NCBI GenBank assembly: GCA_013426015.1
Contig: CP058998.1
Span: 724,071-788,070, forward strand
DNA length: 64,000 bases
Direction of reading: 5' to 3'
DNA from: Candidatus Fermentimicrarchaeum limneticum
GTDB lineage: Archaea > Micrarchaeota > Micrarchaeia > Burarchaeales > Fermentimicrarchaeaceae
In this document: positions 36,928 to 56,415 of the stretch, piece after piece
Layout: each line of letters opens with the position of its first letter
Numbering within the stretch: position 1 is the first letter of the stretch
Notes under the pieces: generated by a model
The model's database searches: none
The model's input: only the letters and a program-made list of their open reading frames with translations
Told to the model about the DNA's origin: nothing
Program-made: the position numbers and the translations under genes

Positions 36928-37536
36928 ATGGGTGAACTTTTGATTCAGCAGGAAAAGTATTTGGAAGCTGGCATACATATCGGTACGAAGATAAAGACGC
37001 CCGACATGAACCAGTTCATATACAAAGCAAGGCAGGACAGGCTGTATGTGCTTGATTTGAAGAAAGTTGATGAGAGGATAAGAGTTGCTGCAAAATTCAT
37101 CCCTCACTACAAGCCCGAGGAAATGCTGATTGTTGCCTCAAGATTGTATGCGAGCAGCTCCGCCAAGAAGTTCTGCGAAGCGGTGGGATGCAGGGTTGTT
37201 GAAGGCAGGTTTATTCCAGGAATGCTGACAAACCCCGCAAGAGGGGATTACTGGGAACCGAAGCTGCTGTTCATATGCGACCCGAAGAATGAGAGGCAGG
37301 CAATAAAGGAAGCAAATTCGACAGGCATACCTGTGATTGCACTGTGCGACACGGACAACTCCACGAAATTCGTGGATTGGATAATCCCGTGCAACAACAA
37401 AGGCAGGAAGTCGCTTGCATTAATTTTCTATCTTCTTGCAAGGGAAATCAAGAAGCTTAAGGGAGATGAGGAGTTCAAGCTAAAGCCGGAGGACTTTGAA
37501 GGAATGAGAGACGAGGAGGAAGAGCCCTCAGCTTGA
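36928..37536 (+). CDS. rps2: 30S ribosomal protein S2
   Basis: uS2; start ATG 36928 ([19 protein letters not shown]...) just after the tRNA. Confidence 0.92.
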
Positions 37537-38781
37537 TTCCCTTATGCAGTTGTTCTTGACAAACGGGTCAGTTATGCTCTGGCATACTGTTGAGTTCTTG
37601 CTGTTTATTGCAAGCTGCTTGAAACATTCATCCTCCCAGTTCTGATGGATGATGGTCGCGCATGAGGAGAACGTGTAATTCTGGTTGTATATTATAGACG
37701 AGTAGCACGTGTTCATCGTGTAGGTGTTCTCTATTTTCGAGCAGAAGGACGGGTTGCTAGCGCTTTTTGCAATATTTAGATGGCACGAATCCTTCTTCAT
37801 AGGTTCGGATATCCTGTTGCATAGCGAGATGTTGCCCGTGACATTTGCAACGCCGTAATAGCAGTTATCCTTGTCCGTTATGCACTCGTAGCAGATTATC
37901 CTGGAGCATATGTCCGCATTCCTGCTTTTCACAGCTATGTTTGTGTAGCACTTGTCCTGGTAGAGGTGGGTGCTTATGTTCGAGCATAGCGAGTAGTTCG
38001 TGCTGTCGCTTGCAAAAACCTCAATGCACGAATCTATCTGCAGGTAATCCGGAAGTTCGTTGCAGAGAGAGTAATTTCCGGTGAGCTTCGTGAGGCACAG
38101 GTATTTCGTGTATAGATTGGAAATGCTGCTGCAGAGCGAGGAATTGCTGTTGAGATATGCAAAGTAGCGGTAGCAGTCGCCCCTCACCCCTGCTCCCGCA
38201 GGCAATGCGCATATGGAATAGTCATTCTTGTTCTTTGCAAATTCAACATAACACATGTCGGTAAGGGACTGGTTTTGGATTTCCGCACATATCGACTCAT
38301 TGTTTCTTGCCTTTGCCATGCAGAGATGGAAGTCGTAACCGTCAGTCATTTCCTCGCAGAGCACGGTATCGTCACCCAAGTCCAGGCGGCACTGCTTTCT
38401 CAGAATTGCATTCTCAATTTTTTTGCATGTGACAACTCCCACAACCGGTGCCAAGGTATGGTAGCAGTCGTCCCTCGTCTCCATGCTGAGTATTCTTCCG
38501 CAGAGTGTCGAGTCATTCAGATTTATTGCAAACCTGAGGTTGCAGGCATCCCTGAGAGAGTCTGAGAAGATGAACGAGCATGCGGTCAGGTTGTTCTTGG
38601 AGATTGCATCGTTGTAGTAGCATCTGTCTCCCTCTGCGCGGTCGGTTATTTCAGCGCACTGCAATTCCACAGGCGGCGGGGTTACTGTACCGTTATTTTT
38701 CGGTCCTTCAGGAAGCTGATATGAGACGCATCCAAAGAGCAATAAGAAAAATACCGTGAACAAGGCTATTTTGACGTTCAT
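37528..38781 (-). CDS. Cys-rich tandem-repeat lipoprotein (predicted secreted, N-glycosylated surface protein)
   Basis: Signal peptide plus lipobox-like [18 protein letters not shown]; ~15 repeats of ~26 aa with pattern C-x2-I-x5-7-[RD]-x-C-[YF]; ~30 Cys; many N-x-S/T sequons. Confidence 0.6.
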
Positions 38782-42102: not shown

Positions 42103-42150
42103 ATGGGGCCAGAGTGCATTAAACTTCAAGTTTTTGGATTGGGCCATAGG
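42103..42150. repeat. att-like repeat A: partial copy of the tRNA-Trp 3' end plus shared ~45-bp motif
   Basis: ATGGGGCCAGAG 12-mer identical to the plus-strand image of the tRNA-Trp 3' end at 45555-45566; ~85% identical to repeat B. Confidence 0.6.
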
Positions 42151-42232: not shown

Positions 42233-44743
42233 CTATTTTATTACAAAAACAGTTGCAGTCTTCTCATCCTCATCTGGCAGAGCATCTGAGTAAATCTCTC
42301 CCTTAAAAGTATGAATTTTTAAAAGCTCAACATTTCCTTTTTCGAACTTTTCTTCTGCGTATGGAGTTGCATCACTATAGGTGGTTCCCAGAATGACTTT
42401 CTTGAAGCCAGCCTTCTCTGCTAAATCCTTGACAAAACCGATCGAGGCTTCGTATATCTCATTCGTATTCTTGTAAGAGCTTGTTATGTTTATGGAATCT
42501 ATTATCAGAGTGGATTCACCCCCGATCTTGCCTGCGAAGAGCCATGCCTGCCCGATTCTCTGTTCTTTTCCTTCTTTTGTTATGGATATCTCGGCTATTT
42601 GAGTCGCAGCATCCATCATGTAGATAGGTAGAGTCCACCTGTTACCTCCATTAAAAGCAACACAGCAACCCGAATCGTTCCCGTTTGTCAAGGCAGTCAA
42701 CGGGTTTTTATCACTCAATTTCACCGAGATTATAATCTCCCCTGCTTCGCCTTTCATCGGCTTCACAGGCATGCCGAGCAATCTTTCAATCTCCTGAACA
42801 TGGAATAGGGCAGTTCTAGCCTCGCCTTTAATCTCCTCTGAGTCTACTACCATCGAACCAGGCGTTCCTGTGGTCTTTAGATACTTCTCAAGCACCGACA
42901 CTGCTTCCTTTGACCATTTTTTATCATTTGACAGCATCATCTCAATTATTGCCTTTGCTCTCTCCTCTGGGGTTTTGTAGTCCCGTGCATCAAGAGAGGT
43001 CAGTTCCGCAAATACCTTTCCCGGCTTCTTGAAAACCTCCCCTTTCGGGTTGCTGAAAAGCTGCATCACCACATCCTGGAACGTATCATTGATGTGCTCC
43101 TCTCCTGCCTCCAGCTTCTCAATTCCTGTTAATGTTTTCTTGAAGACTACTTTGTCAATCCCCTTGTAGTAGACGTAGACATCGGTATTTATTCCAAGCT
43201 TGTTCATTTCTGTGAGTGCTTGCTTATTCTCTTCTAGTGAGTCGTAGTACTTTTGGAAGGTGTTTTCAAGCCCGTACTTTATGAGTATCCTTACTTCCTC
43301 GTTTTTTTCAATAAAATCTAAACCAGATATCATTTTGATAAGATATTCCTTCTGGTCTTGGGCTATTTTTTCAAATGGGAATTTCACATCTTCCGCTATT
43401 TTCTTAGCGCCTAGGTCAATAAGCTGTGCAGAGAAGTCCTGCAGCTTGAGCCGGGAGAGCTCTTCTTTTGAGAAATTGGGTATATAACTAATAAGACGGG
43501 GATTTTTCAACAGACTAGTCACAGCAGAACTTAAATCTTGCATTGTTAATCTTTTTCCCTCTGTTTGTGTTAACAGCGCACCTAACACCTTTTCTCTCTC
43601 TCCCCAAGATTCAATAAACCCCTCCTCTTTTAGTTTTTCGTTTAACAAGTCTTCTAATTTTTTAATTTCTGATATCCACCCACTCATTTCTTCTTTGGTT
43701 TTTATGATTCCCTCCATTGCTAGATTTACAAGATTCCCTCTAATTTCAAAATCATAAAAGATATCGCAGGCTACATCTGCCACCTTTGCCCTTTTTTCAA
43801 TCTCTGGCACCCAGTCTCTCAGTTCCTCAACGGTTTTTGCCACTCCTGTTTTTACTAGTGAATCCAAATACTTCGAGCCTATTTGCCGCGTGGATGAATT
43901 AGCAGAAATAAGTTTGAAGTCTAACTCATCGTATACGCGGTCTAATCTTTTTATATGGCGTACGTCGGATTCATATAATTTCACTAGTTTTTTAAGGTCT
44001 TCTGAGGATTTTACCATGTCTTTTTTTACCAATTCGGGTAGATGGTTGCGGCATACGTACTTACCCCATAAATCATTAAACTTGAAGTCTCTCAATAGGT
44101 CTGCTTTTGCTAGGTTTGGGAAAACAAAGGATATGGGCAACCCACCGAGCTCTCTTCCATGATATTCTGCGTCCCGTGTTAATTCATGTAGTTTGACTAT
44201 TGCGTGTAAGTCATTCGGGGATTTTATCACTCCCTTATCCAACATAAGTTGTAGACTGTCTCCCCACATGATATTGCTGATAGTGATTAGTTCTAAACCG
44301 CAGCACCCTAAGTCATTCGGGGATTTTATCACTTCTTTCTTTCCTAGTTTCGAAATAAATTCATCCAGATCTATCGGTCCAACTGAGATTCCTTGATGCT
44401 CGGAAAGATATTTATGCAATCCGATCAGCTTTTTTCCATACCTTTCCAAATCTTCCGTGTCTTTTATCAGACCACTCTCTCCAAGCAGTAGGAAACCTCT
44501 TTCGAAATTCATCCAGTAACGTCCAGGTTCTGATAACTCGTATAATTTATGCAGGGCTGTAATGTTTTCAGGTGTGACCTTAAGGCGCATTCCTTTCAGT
44601 ATTCTCTCGTGAATCTCTCTTTCATAGGAGGGGATTTTCGCCAGCTCCCTCTTCATTCTCTGCTCAGGGATTTCAGGCTTTATGCGCTCTGTTTCTACTG
44701 GCTGCTCGGCAGGCGCTTCAATGGGTTTCAGCTTCTCTGGCAT
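42233..44743 (-). CDS. Large hypothetical protein (836 aa) with internal tandem repeat
   Basis: No recognisable catalytic motif; 105-bp direct DNA repeat (~44207 and ~44312) encodes duplicated (V)IKSPNDL segment; no signal peptide. Confidence 0.5.
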   Translation of the reverse strand: MPEKLKPIEAPAEQPVETERIKPEIPEQRMKRELAKIPSYEREIHERILKGMRLKVTPENITALHKLYELSEPGRYWMNFERGFLLLGESGLIKDTEDLERYGKKLIGLHKYLSEHQGISVGPIDLDEFISKLGKKEVIKSPNDLGCCGLELITISNIMWGDSLQLMLDKGVIKSPNDLHAIVKLHELTRDAEYHGRELGGLPISFVFPNLAKADLLRDFKFNDLWGKYVCRNHLPELVKKDMVKSSEDLKKLVKLYESDVRHIKRLDRVYDELDFKLISANSSTRQIGSKYLDSLVKTGVAKTVEELRDWVPEIEKRAKVADVACDIFYDFEIRGNLVNLAMEGIIKTKEEMSGWISEIKKLEDLLNEKLKEEGFIESWGEREKVLGALLTQTEGKRLTMQDLSSAVTSLLKNPRLISYIPNFSKEELSRLKLQDFSAQLIDLGAKKIAEDVKFPFEKIAQDQKEYLIKMISGLDFIEKNEEVRILIKYGLENTFQKYYDSLEENKQALTEMNKLGINTDVYVYYKGIDKVVFKKTLTGIEKLEAGEEHINDTFQDVVMQLFSNPKGEVFKKPGKVFAELTSLDARDYKTPEERAKAIIEMMLSNDKKWSKEAVSVLEKYLKTTGTPGSMVVDSEEIKGEARTALFHVQEIERLLGMPVKPMKGEAGEIIISVKLSDKNPLTALTNGNDSGCCVAFNGGNRWTLPIYMMDAATQIAEISITKEGKEQRIGQAWLFAGKIGGESTLIIDSINITSSYKNTNEIYEASIGFVKDLAEKAGFKKVILGTTYSDATPYAEEKFEKGNVELLKIHTFKGEIYSDALPDEDEKTATVFVIK

Positions 44744-44791: not shown

Positions 44792-44840
44792 GTGGGGCCA
44801 GAGCCGATTAAATTTCAGGTTTTTCATTTGGGCCCATAAA
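44792..44840. repeat. att-like repeat B: partial copy of the tRNA-Trp 3' end plus shared motif
   Basis: TGGGGCCAGAG 11-mer identical to tRNA-Trp 3' end; ~85% identical to repeat A. Confidence 0.6.
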
Positions 44841-44877: not shown

Positions 44878-45477
44878 CTACTGGCAGCAGTGGAAAGGTT
44901 TGCTGGTGTAGGATGGATCGGCAACTCTATTTGCACCACACTCGTCTGGCAGGTTTTGGACTACAATTGGCATTATTTGACCGCCAGGACTAAGCCACTC
45001 GTTGGACCACTCGCCTCCGGTTGGGATGGTGATTGCTCCAGCATGGCATGCGCCATAAAGTTGCGGTATGTCACACAAAGTCTTGTTTTCACTCTGGCAT
45101 TGCGCCATAGAATCATCTATTGACTTTGCACTATTTGAAGAGGTGTCTATGCAGAAAGCTCCTGCCCTTGTCATATCAGTAGGACATGGAAGTTGGGCTA
45201 TAGTTACTGCTGGACCAGGATTTCCTTGGGATCCTTGCGGTCCGGCTGGCCCAGTATCTCCTTCTGGACCTTGGGGTCCCACCGAACCTGTATCGCCTTT
45301 AGATCCCTGAGGTCCTACATCACCTCTTGAACCTTGGGGTCCTATTGGACCAGTATCGCCCTTCGGACCCTGCTGTCCGGTATCACCCTTCGCTCCTTGC
45401 GGTCCTGCGGGACCTACCTGTGTGCAACCGGCAAAAAACAGCGCTACAATCAATAAGACAATTAAGAGCCTTCTCAT
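44878..45477 (-). CDS. Collagen-like (Gly-X-Y repeat) lipoprotein with Cys-rich C-terminal domain
   Basis: Signal peptide plus lipobox-like [18 protein letters not shown]; ~25 uninterrupted G-X-Y triplets; C-terminal ~110 aa with 8 Cys. Confidence 0.65.
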
Positions 45478-45555
45478 TACCTTCACCCCCAATTATTTAG
45501 TTAGGGCTTTTTAATATATGCATTAGTCAAGATAATCCTTTATAAGATAAATGTA

Positions 45556-45722
45556 TGGGGCCAGAGGGATTTGAACCCTCATTAACAGGTGTCTCATAAA
45601 GCATCTCATCCTTTGTCAATGCTCCAATTCTAAATCATCCCCGAAGGTCATTCCACCTGTAACAATGCTCCTCTACAAAAGGAACTGGAGCCTGTTGTTC
45701 TGCCAAGTTATACCATGGCCCC
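45556..45722 (-). tRNA. tRNA-Trp (anticodon CCA) with ~90-nt intron at or near the canonical position
   Basis: Hand-fold: acceptor GGGGCCA/TGGCCCC+A73, anticodon stem ACAGG/CCTGT with loop CTCCAG..., T-arm GAGGG-TTCAAAT-CCCTC; 167 nt precursor. Confidence 0.7.
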
Positions 45723-47230: not shown

Positions 47231-47587
47231 ATGTTGATGGAGGCACCTGCCAAACCCGAAGTGATTAGGGACATGGCGGAGAAGCTCAAGGATACCCACA
47301 GATTGATGGCGATATCCGGGATTGACGAGGGCGGCAGCATAACGCTCTGCTATCATTTCTGGAGCATCTCCAGCAATGAGATAATGAACTTGAGAGTAAA
47401 GCTTGGAAAGAGCAATATACGAACCATATCGGACATCATACCAAACGCTCTGTATTACGAGAGGGAAATCCACGATTTGCTGGGAGTTGAGTTCGGAGGA
47501 GCAAAGCTGCACCCGCTGCTCGTCCCTAAGGGGTATAAGAAATATCCCCTGAGAAAGGCTCTTGAGGGGAAGAAGCTCAGCCCTTGA
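47231..47587 (+). CDS. NuoC-like (30-kDa subunit family) component of a [NiFe] hydrogenase / complex I-like module
   Basis: YYEREIHDLLGVEF motif characteristic of NuoC/EchD-type subunits; 118 aa. Confidence 0.65.
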   Translation: MLMEAPAKPEVIRDMAEKLKDTHRLMAISGIDEGGSITLCYHFWSISSNEIMNLRVKLGKSNIRTISDIIPNALYYEREIHDLLGVEFGGAKLHPLLVPKGYKKYPLRKALEGKKLSP

Positions 47588-48431
47588 CTATCTGCATACA
47601 CTGGTCCCTCAAGAGTTCTGTTGCGATGTATGTGCACAGAGTAGGGTTATTCGTGTCCTTTGCTACCTGCGTGTAGCAGCTGTCCCTCAGTGATGCAGAC
47701 GGCAGGTTTTTGCATGCATCGGGGTTCTTGGAGTATACCGCAGCCACATACAGGCAGGCCTGCTTGCCTTGCGATTCAGTTATCTGGTTGCACAAGGCAG
47801 GATCTATGCTTCCTGTCTTGCATAGGTCTTTTGAGAATGGGTTTACTATCTGGTTGCAGAGCGTCGTATCATTGAGCTCCTCTGCCACTGAGAATACGCA
47901 CCTGTCCACGGCATCCTGCTGCGATTCTGGGTTATCGGTCACAATCAGCTTGCAGAAAGCAGTATCCCTGTTCTGTATGGCAAGGTTGGGGTATATCTGG
48001 TTCTTGCAGGTATTCCTTGATATGTTGAGGGATATGCCGTCGCAGATTTCGGGCCTTTCCATAGCAATCGCTATTCCTGAGAGGCAGCTGTCCCGCTGGT
48101 AGCTGGAGTTGATACGCATGCACATGGAAGTGTCATTGCTGCTTGCAGCCAGCCTGCCAAAACACTCGTCCATCAAGTTGCCGGACAGTTTGGCGCACGT
48201 TGAAGAGTTTACGGGGAGATCTGCACCTATGAGCAGCGCATAGCACTTCTCTGAAAGGCTGCTCACAGTTATCTCATCGCATTTTGACATGTTCTTTGTT
48301 TCGACTGCAACTAAGACAAGGCAGTTGTCCTTCTGTGACGGATCCCAGAGGTGGTAACATCTGTCAGGGGACCTATTCTCTAGAATACAGCCAGAGAGAA
48401 ACACAAGCAGTAGCAGCAGCTGTTTCCTCAT
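47577..48431 (-). CDS. Cys-rich tandem-repeat lipoprotein, paralogue of the 37528..38781 protein
   Basis: MRKQLLLLLVFLSGC signal/lipobox; same ~26-aa Cys-pair repeat architecture and N-x-S/T sequons; embedded antisense within the hydrogenase gene cluster. Confidence 0.6.
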   Translation of the reverse strand: MRKQLLLLLVFLSGCILENRSPDRCYHLWDPSQKDNCLVLVAVETKNMSKCDEITVSSLSEKCYALLIGADLPVNSSTCAKLSGNLMDECFGRLAASSNDTSMCMRINSSYQRDSCLSGIAIAMERPEICDGISLNISRNTCKNQIYPNLAIQNRDTAFCKLIVTDNPESQQDAVDRCVFSVAEELNDTTLCNQIVNPFSKDLCKTGSIDPALCNQITESQGKQACLYVAAVYSKNPDACKNLPSASLRDSCYTQVAKDTNNPTLCTYIATELLRDQCMQIVKG

Positions 48432-53991: not shown

Positions 53992-54086
53992 TGGACTCGG
54001 CGAGATGTTCAGCAGTTTGGAAACTACTTTTGAACTCGCGGCCTCCTCCTCGCAAAGGAGGCGCTCTACCACTGAGCTACGAGCCC
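53992..54086 (-). tRNA. tRNA-Ala (anticodon UGC) in the 16S-23S spacer, with ~23-nt intron in the T-loop
   Basis: Hand-fold: acceptor GGGCUCG/CGAGUCC+A73, D-arm GCUC-AGUGGUA-GAGC, anticodon arm CCUCC-UUUGCGA-GGAGG, T-stem GCGAG...CUCGC with TTCAAA[insert]T loop; 95 nt. Confidence 0.75.
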
Positions 54087-54595
54087 ATCGGCTTCAAGAA
54101 CTATTAGGAGTGAGCGTATTGATGTTCGCTTACCTTGCACTCACACTTTTTCATTCTCGTATCATGGAACGAAAATTTAAGGAGGTGATCTATCCGCAGG
54201 TTCCCCTACGGATACCTTGTTACGACTTAGCCCCTCTCATGACGAATTAGCTCGACGAGATCCGAAGGGATCCCGCCTCACTAAAACTTCATTTGAGTGA
54301 CTTGACGGGCGGTGTGTGCAAGGAGCGGGGACGTATTCACCGCTCGATGTTGACAAGCGATTACTAGGGATTCCAGCTTCATGAGGGCGAGTTTCAGCCC
54401 TCAATCCGAACCTAGGCCGAGTTTGGGGATTAGCTCCTCCTCTCGGAGTGGCAACCCATTGTCTCGACCATTGTATGCCACGTGTAGCCCGGGAGATTCA
54501 GGGCATACTGACCTACCGTTGCCGTCTCCTTCCTCCTGTTTAACACAGGCAGTCCCAACAGAGTGCTTCATCTCCGGAGAGATGAATAGCAACTG

Positions 54596-55105
54596 TCAGC
54601 GACGGTCTCGCTCGTTTCCGGACCGCATGAGTGCTTTTTTTACTTCGGAGTGCTTCATAGAATCCTTGACAAAAACAATGAATTCCCTTGGAGTCATTAT
54701 TGCCAGCCTTCCTTTGATGAATCTGGTTCTGAAGCCCAGAAGCTCAAGTAGCATCTGGTCCTTGTACGAAGCACGCGCCAGGTAAGGCGTGTCCCCCTCT
54801 ACCCCGCCGCAGGAATCGAACATCCCTGCAACGTATGAGGAGGAGTATCTGTTCCTTTTCCTGAAAACATCTATTTGATTCTTCTCAGCTCCCTCAAAGA
54901 ATGTCCTGTACGCTGAATGATAGAAGTACACGTCCCTGTCAGTCATCTGTATCTTCTCTGGAGGAATCTTCAGCGTCTTCATTATTTCTTTCAGGAAAAT
55001 CTCCCTGATCTCTCCGCTGCCTCGTATTCCGATTCCACTGGGAACCCTCCTTCCTTTCCATAAACCTATTAGGTATGCCAGTTCAGGCGTCATTTTAATT
55101 CTCAT
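54596..55105 (-). CDS. LAGLIDADG-like homing endonuclease ORF encoded in the 16S rRNA intron (motif 1 degenerate)
   Basis: Two LAGLIDADG-type motifs (LAYLIGLWKG lacking acidic residues; YVAGMFDSCGGV); ORF 3' end runs ~22 nt into the downstream exon. Confidence 0.6.
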   Translation of the reverse strand: MRIKMTPELAYLIGLWKGRRVPSGIGIRGSGEIREIFLKEIMKTLKIPPEKIQMTDRDVYFYHSAYRTFFEGAEKNQIDVFRKRNRYSSSYVAGMFDSCGGVEGDTPYLARASYKDQMLLELLGFRTRFIKGRLAIMTPREFIVFVKDSMKHSEVKKALMRSGNERDRR

Positions 55106-55147
55106 TCTCTCACTCCAAAACGGATGCACTCATGCGATTTACCGGAC
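54618..55147 (-). mobile_element. 16S rRNA intron (archaeal bulge-helix-bulge type) carrying an endonuclease-like ORF
   Basis: Insertion between GGUUAAGUCCGG and AACGAGCGAGACC; flanks GCAUGAGUGC / GCACUCAUGC can pair; GUCCGG duplicated at both junctions. Confidence 0.8.
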
Positions 55148-55287
55148 TTAACCGGACACTTCACAGCACGAGCTGACGATGGCCATGCACCACCTCTCGG
55201 CTCGTCAGGTAAGATCTTCAGTCTGACCTTCATACTGCCGTCGCTCCCGGTGATATTCCCGGCGTTGAATCCAATTAAACCGCAGCA

Positions 55288-55330
<43 letters not shown>

Positions 55331-56415
55331 ACCTTGCGGCCGTACTCCCCAGGCGGCAGACTTAACACTTACGCTACGGCACTGCCACAGCACTAAGCTA
55401 TGGCAACACCACAGTCTGCATAATTTACTGCTAGGGCTACTCGGGTATCTAATCCGATTCGTTCTCCTAGCCTTCGTCCCTCACTGTCGGACGCGTTTTG
55501 GCCAAGCGCCTTCGCCACTGGGAGTCCTCACAGGATTAACGGATTTTACCCCTACCCCGTGAGTACTCTTGGCCTCCCCCGCTCCCAAGCCCGTCAGTAT
55601 TCTCTGCACTCCTTCAAGTTGAGCTTGAAGATTTCACAGAGAACTTAGCGGGCCAGCTACGGACTCTTTAAGCCCAATATTCGTGGATACCACTCGAGCT
55701 GCCGGTGTTACCGCGGCGGCTGTCACCGGTCTTGCCCAGCTCTTATTCCGCAAGCTCCTTAAGCTTACGAAAAGATGCTCGCGTGGAGCATCACTCAGAA
55801 TCCCCTCGTCACGCTTTCGCGCATTGCGAAGGTTTCGCGCCTGCTGCATCCCGTAGGACTGGAGCCCTTGTCTCAGTGCTCCTCTGGGGGCGCCAACTCC
55901 CATTGCCCCCACCGATTATCGGCTTGGTGGGCCGTTACCCCACCAACTACCTAATCGGAAGCAGTCTCATCCTAAGGCAGACATGGCTGCATTTCGCCAC
56001 GCTGTTTGGGCTATGAAGCTTTCCAGCATCCATAACCTATGTGGTATTAGCCTCAGTTTCCCGAGGTTATCCCCCTCCTTAGGGCAGATTGACCACTCGC
56101 TACTCAGCCGTATGCCACCCCTCCTTGCAGAAGGGGTAGACTTGCATGGCTTAGTCGAATTCTGATAGCAGTACCCTCCAGCAGGATCAACTGGAATTAG
56201 AGCACACTATTCTTCCGCAAGTTCGGCGAAAAGACACCACTATCGCTCACTTCTCCTGTTCTTGAAGCCAGAGTCAAATCCAAACAAGCTTGGATTTCCA
56301 TCGATATTATGCGCTATAGAGGAAGGGTATATCTCACAGCACGAAATAGAATTCGCGCTCCATTTACGCCGTAATCTACAGCGTCCGCACGGCGAAAGAA
56401 GATTATGCACTCTCT

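Follow-up and report, generated by a model that had tools for sequence, protein, structure and literature searches.

The gene described here lies in a 64,000-nucleotide stretch of contig CP058998.1 of Candidatus Fermentimicrarchaeum limneticum (the whole stretch is called the window below), and its 199-amino-acid (aa) product is, with a probability that we put at roughly 0.6, a lipid-anchored trimeric "lollipop" adhesin on the cell surface of a DPANN archaeon. The predicted chain joins a lipoprotein signal peptide, a collagen-like Gly-X-Y stalk and a cysteine-rich C-terminal head. We favour an adhesin or fibre role on account of the head, which shares homology with the adhesive tip of the Bdellovibrio fibre protein Bd2740 and is similar in fold to the head of the Legionella protein Lcl. 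The protein is a plausible candidate for how Fermentimicrarchaeum cells stick to a partner. It is 100% identical to GenBank QLJ53035.1 from the same organism (UniRef100_A0A7D6BH44), encoded on a 1,178,830-bp contig. That entry carries the automatic label "Phage tail fiber protein", which is a product of similarity in the collagen repeat and is misleading; the public label of the orthologue MCX6775498.1 is "hypothetical protein". The archaeal source assumed in the original prediction, which had been made from the sequence alone, is confirmed by the other contents of the window: an rRNA operon with archaeal small- and large-subunit genes, RNA polymerase A' and the split B'/B'' subunits, aEF-2, SecY and ribosomal proteins. 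The aEF-2 is 88 to 91% identical to that of several Candidatus Micrarchaeota metagenome-assembled genomes (MAGs). A further hint in the same prediction, that the gene should be compared with surface proteins of DPANN hosts, was half right, as the organism itself is the DPANN archaeon.

The reading frame lies on the minus strand; it starts with the ATG at 45477 and ends with the stop codon at 44878-44880. Its N terminus has a charged, basic n-region, a hydrophobic core of 12 residues and the lipobox FFAG followed by C18, which matches in a pattern scan the archaeal lipobox [LVI/F][ASTVI][GAS]C with the Cys at +1. Cleavage there would leave a mature protein of 182 residues. Lipoproteins and the lipidation enzyme AliA are reported to be prevalent in DPANN archaea, AliA being present "with some gaps" (PMC12462473). 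The Gly-X-Y tract that follows matches the Pfam Collagen family PF01391 with an E value of 1.9e-15 and a score of 56.8 bits, well above the cut-off (27.2), and the chance of 23 in-register glycines is about 3e-27 at the Gly frequency of the window (0.07). Pro occupies the X position in 11 of the 23 triplets, Gln and Thr occupy the Y position in 7 and 4, respectively, and the sequence KGD occurs three times and RGD once. At the DNA level the tract is assembled from repeat units of 27, 36 and 63 nucleotides (nt). If it is triple-helical, its predicted length is about 20 nm. The tract abuts the head directly, with no coiled-coil neck between them, and the head has exactly eight Cys, at positions 98, 109, 127, 135, 144, 180, 197 and 198. 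The architecture given in the original prediction therefore holds in outline: the lipobox-like FAGC is found at Cys18, and the C-terminal domain of about 110 aa with 8 Cys spans 109 aa; the triplets are uninterrupted as claimed, and the tract is 69 residues long instead of about 75. The strand had been left unstated.

Profile searches with the head found no Pfam family and 0 PHROGs. When 1.84 billion representatives were scanned exhaustively with HMMER, 34 remote relatives emerged at an E value of at most 1e-3. In most of them the domain lies at the C terminus or a few residues from it; the exceptions are P0006, P0016 and P0019, where it is duplicated in tandem, and the truncated P0011 and P0029. 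The stalks that are capped in this way include other collagen-repeat lipoproteins with the same "GPLVTRDQLPCP" junction (P0020, P0028 and, added later, P0046), coiled coils, beta-rich N-domains and giant fibre-like proteins of 2,500 to 2,850 aa. The family shares the motif CP..M..G.FCID...W..A..C...GKRLC..EW..AC...C...FRCC, with the two terminal Cys included in the pattern. In profile A3, built from 30 family members, five Cys columns are invariant and three are occupied at 90% or more.

When profile A3 was compared with the PDB, it matched 8oks_B with an E value of 9.5e-7 over profile positions 4 to 110 of 111, and more weakly the C-type-lectin-like domains (CTLDs) of mannose receptors and formylglycine-generating enzymes. 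The 8OKS structure shows the C-terminal tip of Bd2740, which has a C-type-lectin fold, is trimeric and does not depend on Ca; Bd2740 itself is a "mosaic adhesive trimer" (MAT) that is employed in prey recognition (PMC10769870). By this match the archaeal head and the Bd2740 tip are homologous across the whole domain, including the Cys pattern, at 22% identity. An AlphaFold2 model of the head reached a pLDDT of only 39 from a 4-sequence orthologue alignment, whereas confidence became high once the remote homologues were added. The comparison figures for the head were 12.8 for 8oks (the Bd2740 tip), 11.1 for 8q4e (the C-terminal domain of Legionella Lcl), about 9.6 to 10.3 for CD72, LLT1, DEC205 and invasin, about 8 to 9 for collectin heads and about 8 for Mtd and TvpA. 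Judged from the model, the head has a C-type-lectin-like fold. A C1q-like head, one of the families that the original prediction proposed to search, and a TNF-like head are both rejected, since the fold searches return CTLDs only.

Some of the remote relatives come with contexts of their own. P0028 (L027 2834-3812, JGI 3300037479) combines a lipobox, collagen repeats and an 8-Cys head, and its gene adjoins a Transposase_mut gene, which hints that such proteins travel on mobile DNA in other organisms too. P0031 and P0038 (L024-L026), from 0.1-0.2 um filter fractions of Hainich groundwater, have a single N-terminal transmembrane segment and no collagen. P0031 stems from small-cell filter fractions, and its neighbours are AAA_14/DUF4143 ATPase genes.

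Lcl of Legionella pneumophila resembles the archaeal protein in its overall plan, with a collagen stalk, a CTLD-like head and a Gly-X-Y tract that is polymorphic in length in both. In its way of working the archaeal protein would resemble Lcl and also a miniature collectin. Lcl was shown by experiment to be a trimeric "lollipop": its N terminus binds the membrane, its collagen stalk is polymorphic, and its trimeric, CTLD-like head may nucleate the triple helix (PMC11162425). The two differ in several respects. The Lcl head (PDB 8Q4E) belongs to DUF1566 (PF07603), has no disulfides and carries a basic face that binds glycosaminoglycans, whereas the archaeal head has eight Cys and is acidic; Lcl is a substrate of the type II secretion system anchored by an N-terminal amphipathic helix, whereas the archaeal protein has a lipobox. 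Neither the head nor any of the 30 family members matched PF07603 at E values up to 10, and 8q4e is absent from the sequence matches of the profile to the PDB, so that the similarity to Lcl is at the level of fold only and we do not place the protein in the Lcl/DUF1566 family. Bd2740 of Bdellovibrio bacteriovorus is a bacterial fibre of about 627 aa with a non-collagen stalk, in contrast to the 199-aa archaeal lipoprotein with its collagen stalk. The Bdellovibrio MAT fibres are large (about 1000 aa) and have a meandering trimeric non-collagen stalk that the archaeal protein lacks; as only the tip is common to them, we do not file the archaeal protein as a MAT. Compared to the animal collectins (MBL, SP-A/SP-D, CL-K1), it lacks the alpha-helical neck, the EPN/QPD/WND motifs, the N-terminal Cys-rich oligomerisation region and the hydroxyproline system, and we regard the resemblance as an analogy of architecture and not as membership. 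The Gram-positive surface proteins BclA of Bacillus and Scl1/2 of Streptococcus, and collagen-repeat phage fibres, pair a Gly-X-Y triple-helix stalk with a globular trimerising domain. BclA is a weak sequence match and phage fibres match as well, in both cases through the repeat. However, BclA has a C1q/TNF-like head, the Scl proteins carry a V domain at the N terminus and are anchored through LPXTG, and the phage fibres have no signal peptide; none of them shares the archaeal head.

These comparisons lead us to propose how the protein may work. The Sec signal peptide would export the chain, and Cys18 would be lipidated by an archaeal AliA/AliB-type pathway, as its sequence pattern suggests, so that the lipidated mature N terminus remains anchored in the membrane. 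By homology with Bd2740, three chains would join through the disulfide-rich head, and the head may then nucleate the zippering of the 23 triplets from the C to the N terminus into a triple helix of about 20 nm. This helix would be stabilised by the X-position Pro and by KGD/RGD salt bridges, not by hydroxyproline; X-position Pro and KGD salt bridges have been described as triple-helix stabilisers (PMC11923368). The rod would project the trimeric head from the membrane to bind a glycan or protein on another cell or on a matrix. The bound cell would most plausibly be the host or partner of the episymbiont. Collectin-type Ca-dependent sugar binding by the head is unlikely.

Several observations weigh against this proposal or limit it. 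The lipobox was assigned by matching a PROSITE-type pattern and not with a trained predictor. Trimerisation is inferred solely from homology at 22% identity to Bd2740. The functional steps are likewise inferred, and the source organism is uncultivated. Residues 91-199 contain none of the EPN, QPD and WND motifs for Ca-dependent sugar binding, and with a pI of 4.46 the head is acidic; these traits point to no particular class of ligand. The head is 95% conserved at the aa level among the orthologues, with no hypervariable patch, and this conservation would suit a ligand that does not change, or a role in structure alone, as well as it suits host recognition. Finally, the window has near the gene island no integrase, transposase or reverse transcriptase (RT) that could mobilise the cassette.

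Close relatives of the protein are few. An initial k-mer search with the head found three among 5.8 billion clusters, and later searches added more. The orthologues are P0037 (from a Lac Pavin Micrarchaeota MAG), L022 (a JGI contig), L004 (the full-length version of P0002), P0001 and P0003. All five retain the signal peptide, an LF[FL]AGC lipobox (kept in all six when the window copy is counted), the Gly-X-Y tract and the 8-Cys head. Their tracts comprise 23, 23, 23, 15 and 11 triplets; as a feature the tract is thus kept throughout, with a variable number of triplets. The original prediction had raised the concern that it might be a low-complexity artefact that is not conserved in homologues. 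It is not such an artefact, because the orthologues keep both the tract and the architecture around it. Collagen-like proteins in Archaea have been tallied in bulk surveys (PMC4565658; PMC11923368), and our literature search found no description of a collagen-like protein in DPANN archaea or Micrarchaeota, nor of an archaeal one with a lectin-fold head.

The second finding concerns the history of the gene. Between the window and locus L023 of the Lac Pavin MAG, the collagen-like gene is 97% identical at the nucleotide level, with a nonsynonymous divergence (dN) of 0.025 and a synonymous divergence (dS) of 0.051, whereas the genes around it are far more diverged: the DHH phosphoesterase gene is 64% identical (dN 0.31, dS 3.0), the acyltransferase gene 65% (dN 0.28, dS 2.0), the thioredoxin gene 69% (dN 0.24, dS 1.8) and the ProRS gene 79% (dN 0.10, dS 1.6). 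The block of high identity ends directly after the stop codon. The core genes of L022 and L023 are 94% identical, and the L023 collagen gene is 97% identical to the window copy versus 92.5% to the L022 copy, which indicates that the tree of this gene is incongruent with that of the core genome. Within the gene, the region encoding the N terminus and stalk is 95% identical between L003 and L004 and the head region 82%, whereas between L003 and the window the same regions are 73% and 96% identical, respectively. The gene is a mosaic of two modules, stalk and head. The sequence comparison, with its contrast in dS, tree incongruence and mosaicism, shows that the cassette and its inner modules have recently passed, by movement or recombination, from one to another of the divergent lineages of Micrarchaeota.

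The gene is also a self-contained cassette, with its own AT-rich box, Shine-Dalgarno sequence and oligo-T run. The TATA-like box ATATATTAAAAA lies at 45508-45519 and the Shine-Dalgarno sequence GGTGA at 45483-45487. The region upstream of the ATG is 93 to 97% conserved compared to L023 and L022, and an oligo-T run after the stop codon is likewise found in L004 and L001. On the minus strand, the order is the DHH phosphoesterase gene (46926-45754), tRNA-Trp, the collagen gene, a 46-nt element, an open reading frame (ORF) of 836 aa, a 45-nt element and then the acyltransferase, thioredoxin and ProRS genes (Table 1). Both elements end in the 11-nt core CTCTGGCCCCA, which is common to the 3' end of the tRNA-Trp, and there are exactly two copies of the 45/46-nt element within the 64 kb. 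In the window, the collagen gene is thus bordered by the tRNA on one side and by an element copy on the other. The 46-nt element flanks the collagen gene on both sides in L001/L002 (L001 2988-3033 and 3648-3693) and in L004 (509-554 and 1272-1317) and is present only upstream of it in L022 (1450-1487); L023 has no copy. When folded, the element forms only a 5-bp GGGCC/GGCCC stem, and with no covariation and no Rfam family a structured RNA is unsupported.

Table 1. Features of the collagen-gene island, with positions in the window
Feature	Position	Strand	Remarks
Collagen-like lipoprotein with C-type-lectin-like head, coding sequence	44878..45477	-	Complete, 199 aa plus stop
Signal peptide and lipobox, residues 1-18	45424..45477	-	Pattern match; Cys18 is the predicted lipidation site
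Collagen-like tract, residues 22-90	45208..45414	-	23 uninterrupted Gly-X-Y triplets (69 residues)
Predicted C-terminal 8-Cys C-type-lectin-like head of the Bd2740 type, residues 91-199 (109 aa)	44881..45207	-	Profile and fold searches
Upstream region, tRNA 3' end to ATG	45478..45555	-	Read from sequence and alignment; putative function
Oligo-T run (T8, then T4) after the stop codon	44860..44872	-	Read as an archaeal-type terminator signal; putative function
tRNA-Trp(CCA) with 94-nt intron	45556..45722	-	3' end CTCTGGCCCCA is the left junction of the cassette
46-nt element, copy 2 (TATGGGCCC..AAAAACCTGAAATTTAATCGG-CTCTGGCCCCA)	44793..44838	-	Closes the collagen cassette
45-nt element, copy 1	42104..42148	-	Closes the 836-aa cassette; core genes resume just past it
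836-aa ORF of the neighbouring cassette	42233..44743	-	GC 0.416

The island is hypervariable, and what accompanies the collagen gene differs from genome to genome. The 836-aa ORF of the window contains internal repeats of about 34 aa (102-nt period) and has no Pfam, PHROG, PDB or PADLOC family and no signal peptide; L022, L023 and L001 lack it in their orthologous islands. The other gene encodes a NosD-like beta-helix protein in L001 and a PEMT/ICMT methyltransferase in L023, L003 and L004, and the L022 island has a 255-aa ORF and a C11 peptidase gene. The PADLOC defence models matched neither cassette protein, the sole trace being AbiEii at 0.0055. There is no integrase or recombinase gene in the island or its flanks in the window, L022 and L023. 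The tRNA-Trp, counted with the intron, shares about 93% identity with that of L023, although the flanking genes are saturated. Its intron holds a 25-nt internal direct repeat and recalls the C/D-box guide RNA of euryarchaeal pre-tRNA-Trp introns.

It is possible, although we think it rather unlikely, that these islands are an integron-like system in which single-gene surface cassettes are shuffled into the tRNA-Trp array as mobile, modular determinants of host range. The 46-nt element would then be a tRNA-mimicking recombination site served by a recombinase encoded elsewhere, with the stalk and head modules being swapped, a scheme that we regard as equally speculative. The cassettes would, with no greater confidence on our part, include the adhesin, the beta-helix protein, the C11 peptidase and the 836-aa protein. 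If true, such an archaeal cassette system would tune which partner cell the symbiont grips.

Other explanations must be weighed against the adhesin reading. The protein may be a structural part of the envelope, such as a spacer or tether that links the membrane to the S-layer, or a protein for self-aggregation or biofilm formation. A lipid anchor and a rigid rod of about 20 nm would suit such a role, and Lcl, too, is a driver of auto-aggregation and biofilm formation (PMC11162425, PMC6460258). The very strong conservation of the head among the orthologues keeps this rival serious. Still, we think it unlikely, as the gene is accessory, lies in a variable island, has been laterally exchanged and is mosaic in stalk and head, and its nearest solved relative caps a fibre with which foreign cells are recognised. 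Since 5.8 billion protein clusters hold no more than a handful of close homologues, it is also not a core envelope protein of the phylum. Diversity-generating retroelements (DGRs) are common in DPANN archaea and their variable proteins use C-type-lectin folds, but the idea that the protein is the variable product of such an element is very improbable. The 64-kb window contains no template repeat of the 3' region of the gene, a crude regex scan of its ORFs of at least 150 aa found no RT-like Y[AVILMC]DD motif, and the 95% conserved head shows no adenine-patterned hypervariable patch. That the gene call is wrong, or that the tract is a low-complexity stretch which is never translated, is an almost negligible possibility. 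Overlapping ORFs on the opposite strand do exist, but six genomes share the reading frame, the lipobox and its Cys, and the eight head Cys, with dN/dS below 1; conservation extends to the upstream region and the oligo-T run, and the head folds with high model confidence.

The original prediction had suggested a virus- or element-derived adhesin or fibre that sits as cargo next to an att-like repeat. Part of this stands. The 46-nt and 45-nt direct repeats carry the 3' core CTCTGGCCCCA of the tRNA-Trp, the gene behaves as laterally moving cargo according to the dS contrast and the mosaicism, and an adhesin or fibre remains the best reading. A viral origin is not supported. It would make the gene the remnant of a tail-fibre gene from an archaeal virus integrated at the tRNA-Trp, in keeping with the matches to PHROG tail-fibre families at E values down to 3e-21, the resemblance of the tRNA-adjacent direct repeats to att sites, the lateral movement of the cassette and the mention in one paper that the Sv326 genome contains a homologue of a myoviral terminase (PMC9230969). 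However, the PHROG matches listed are confined to residues 19-124, which is the Gly-X-Y tract and at most the first 30 or so residues of the head, and the head alone, with its 0 PHROGs, also went without a match in tblastn against GenBank phages and among the IMG/VR contigs. Matches in BFVD were nearly all to lectins of eukaryote viruses, together with one weak DUF1566 match from an uncultured Caudovirales phage (E value, 0.048). Proteins of the cell envelope, and not virion fibres, are marked by a Sec signal peptide with a lipobox. No capsid, terminase, integrase or other viral gene was found in the island or flanks of five loci, where the neighbours are core genes or further cassettes for surface and enzymatic proteins. 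We therefore consider a viral tail fibre quite improbable.

Other features of the window were noted in passing. Two more proteins have predicted lipoboxes and no Pfam family, one at 37528-38781 (minus strand, ...LLLFGC) and one at 47577-48431 (minus strand, ...VFLSGC), and both have counterparts at matching positions in L023, as seen from synteny and nucleotide matches. The 16S rRNA gene (54180-56197, minus strand) is 2,018 nt long, compared to the 1,478-nt model, and has an insertion of about 515 nt at approximately 54618-55131. This insertion carries a 177-aa ORF (54596-55129, minus strand) with motifs that look LAGLIDADG-like by eye (LAYLIGLWKG, YVAGMFDSCGG) and no Pfam match. The universal 515F primer site in the 16S gene reads GTGACAGCC. 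In the 16S-23S spacer, ARAGORN calls an 83-nt tRNA-Ala (54004-54086, minus strand), but in Rfam the alignment with the full tRNA model is limited to 54031-54086; a difference in boundaries or an insertion could explain this.

The molecules by which DPANN archaea recognise and hold their hosts have been described as unknown (PMC11329633), and this gene is a small, concrete and experimentally tractable candidate for such attachment. The design of a collagen stalk with a lectin head, familiar from animal collectins, from Legionella Lcl and, as regards the tip, from the prey-recognition fibres of Bdellovibrio, would also be used in Archaea, with an archaeal-type lipid anchor. What stands out is its occurrence in an episymbiotic archaeon, together with the evidence for recent exchange of the cassette. 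At this tRNA-linked island, the contrast in dS (0.05 versus more than 1.6) and the mosaicism document that the gene of a surface protein has lately flowed from one Micrarchaeota lineage to another.
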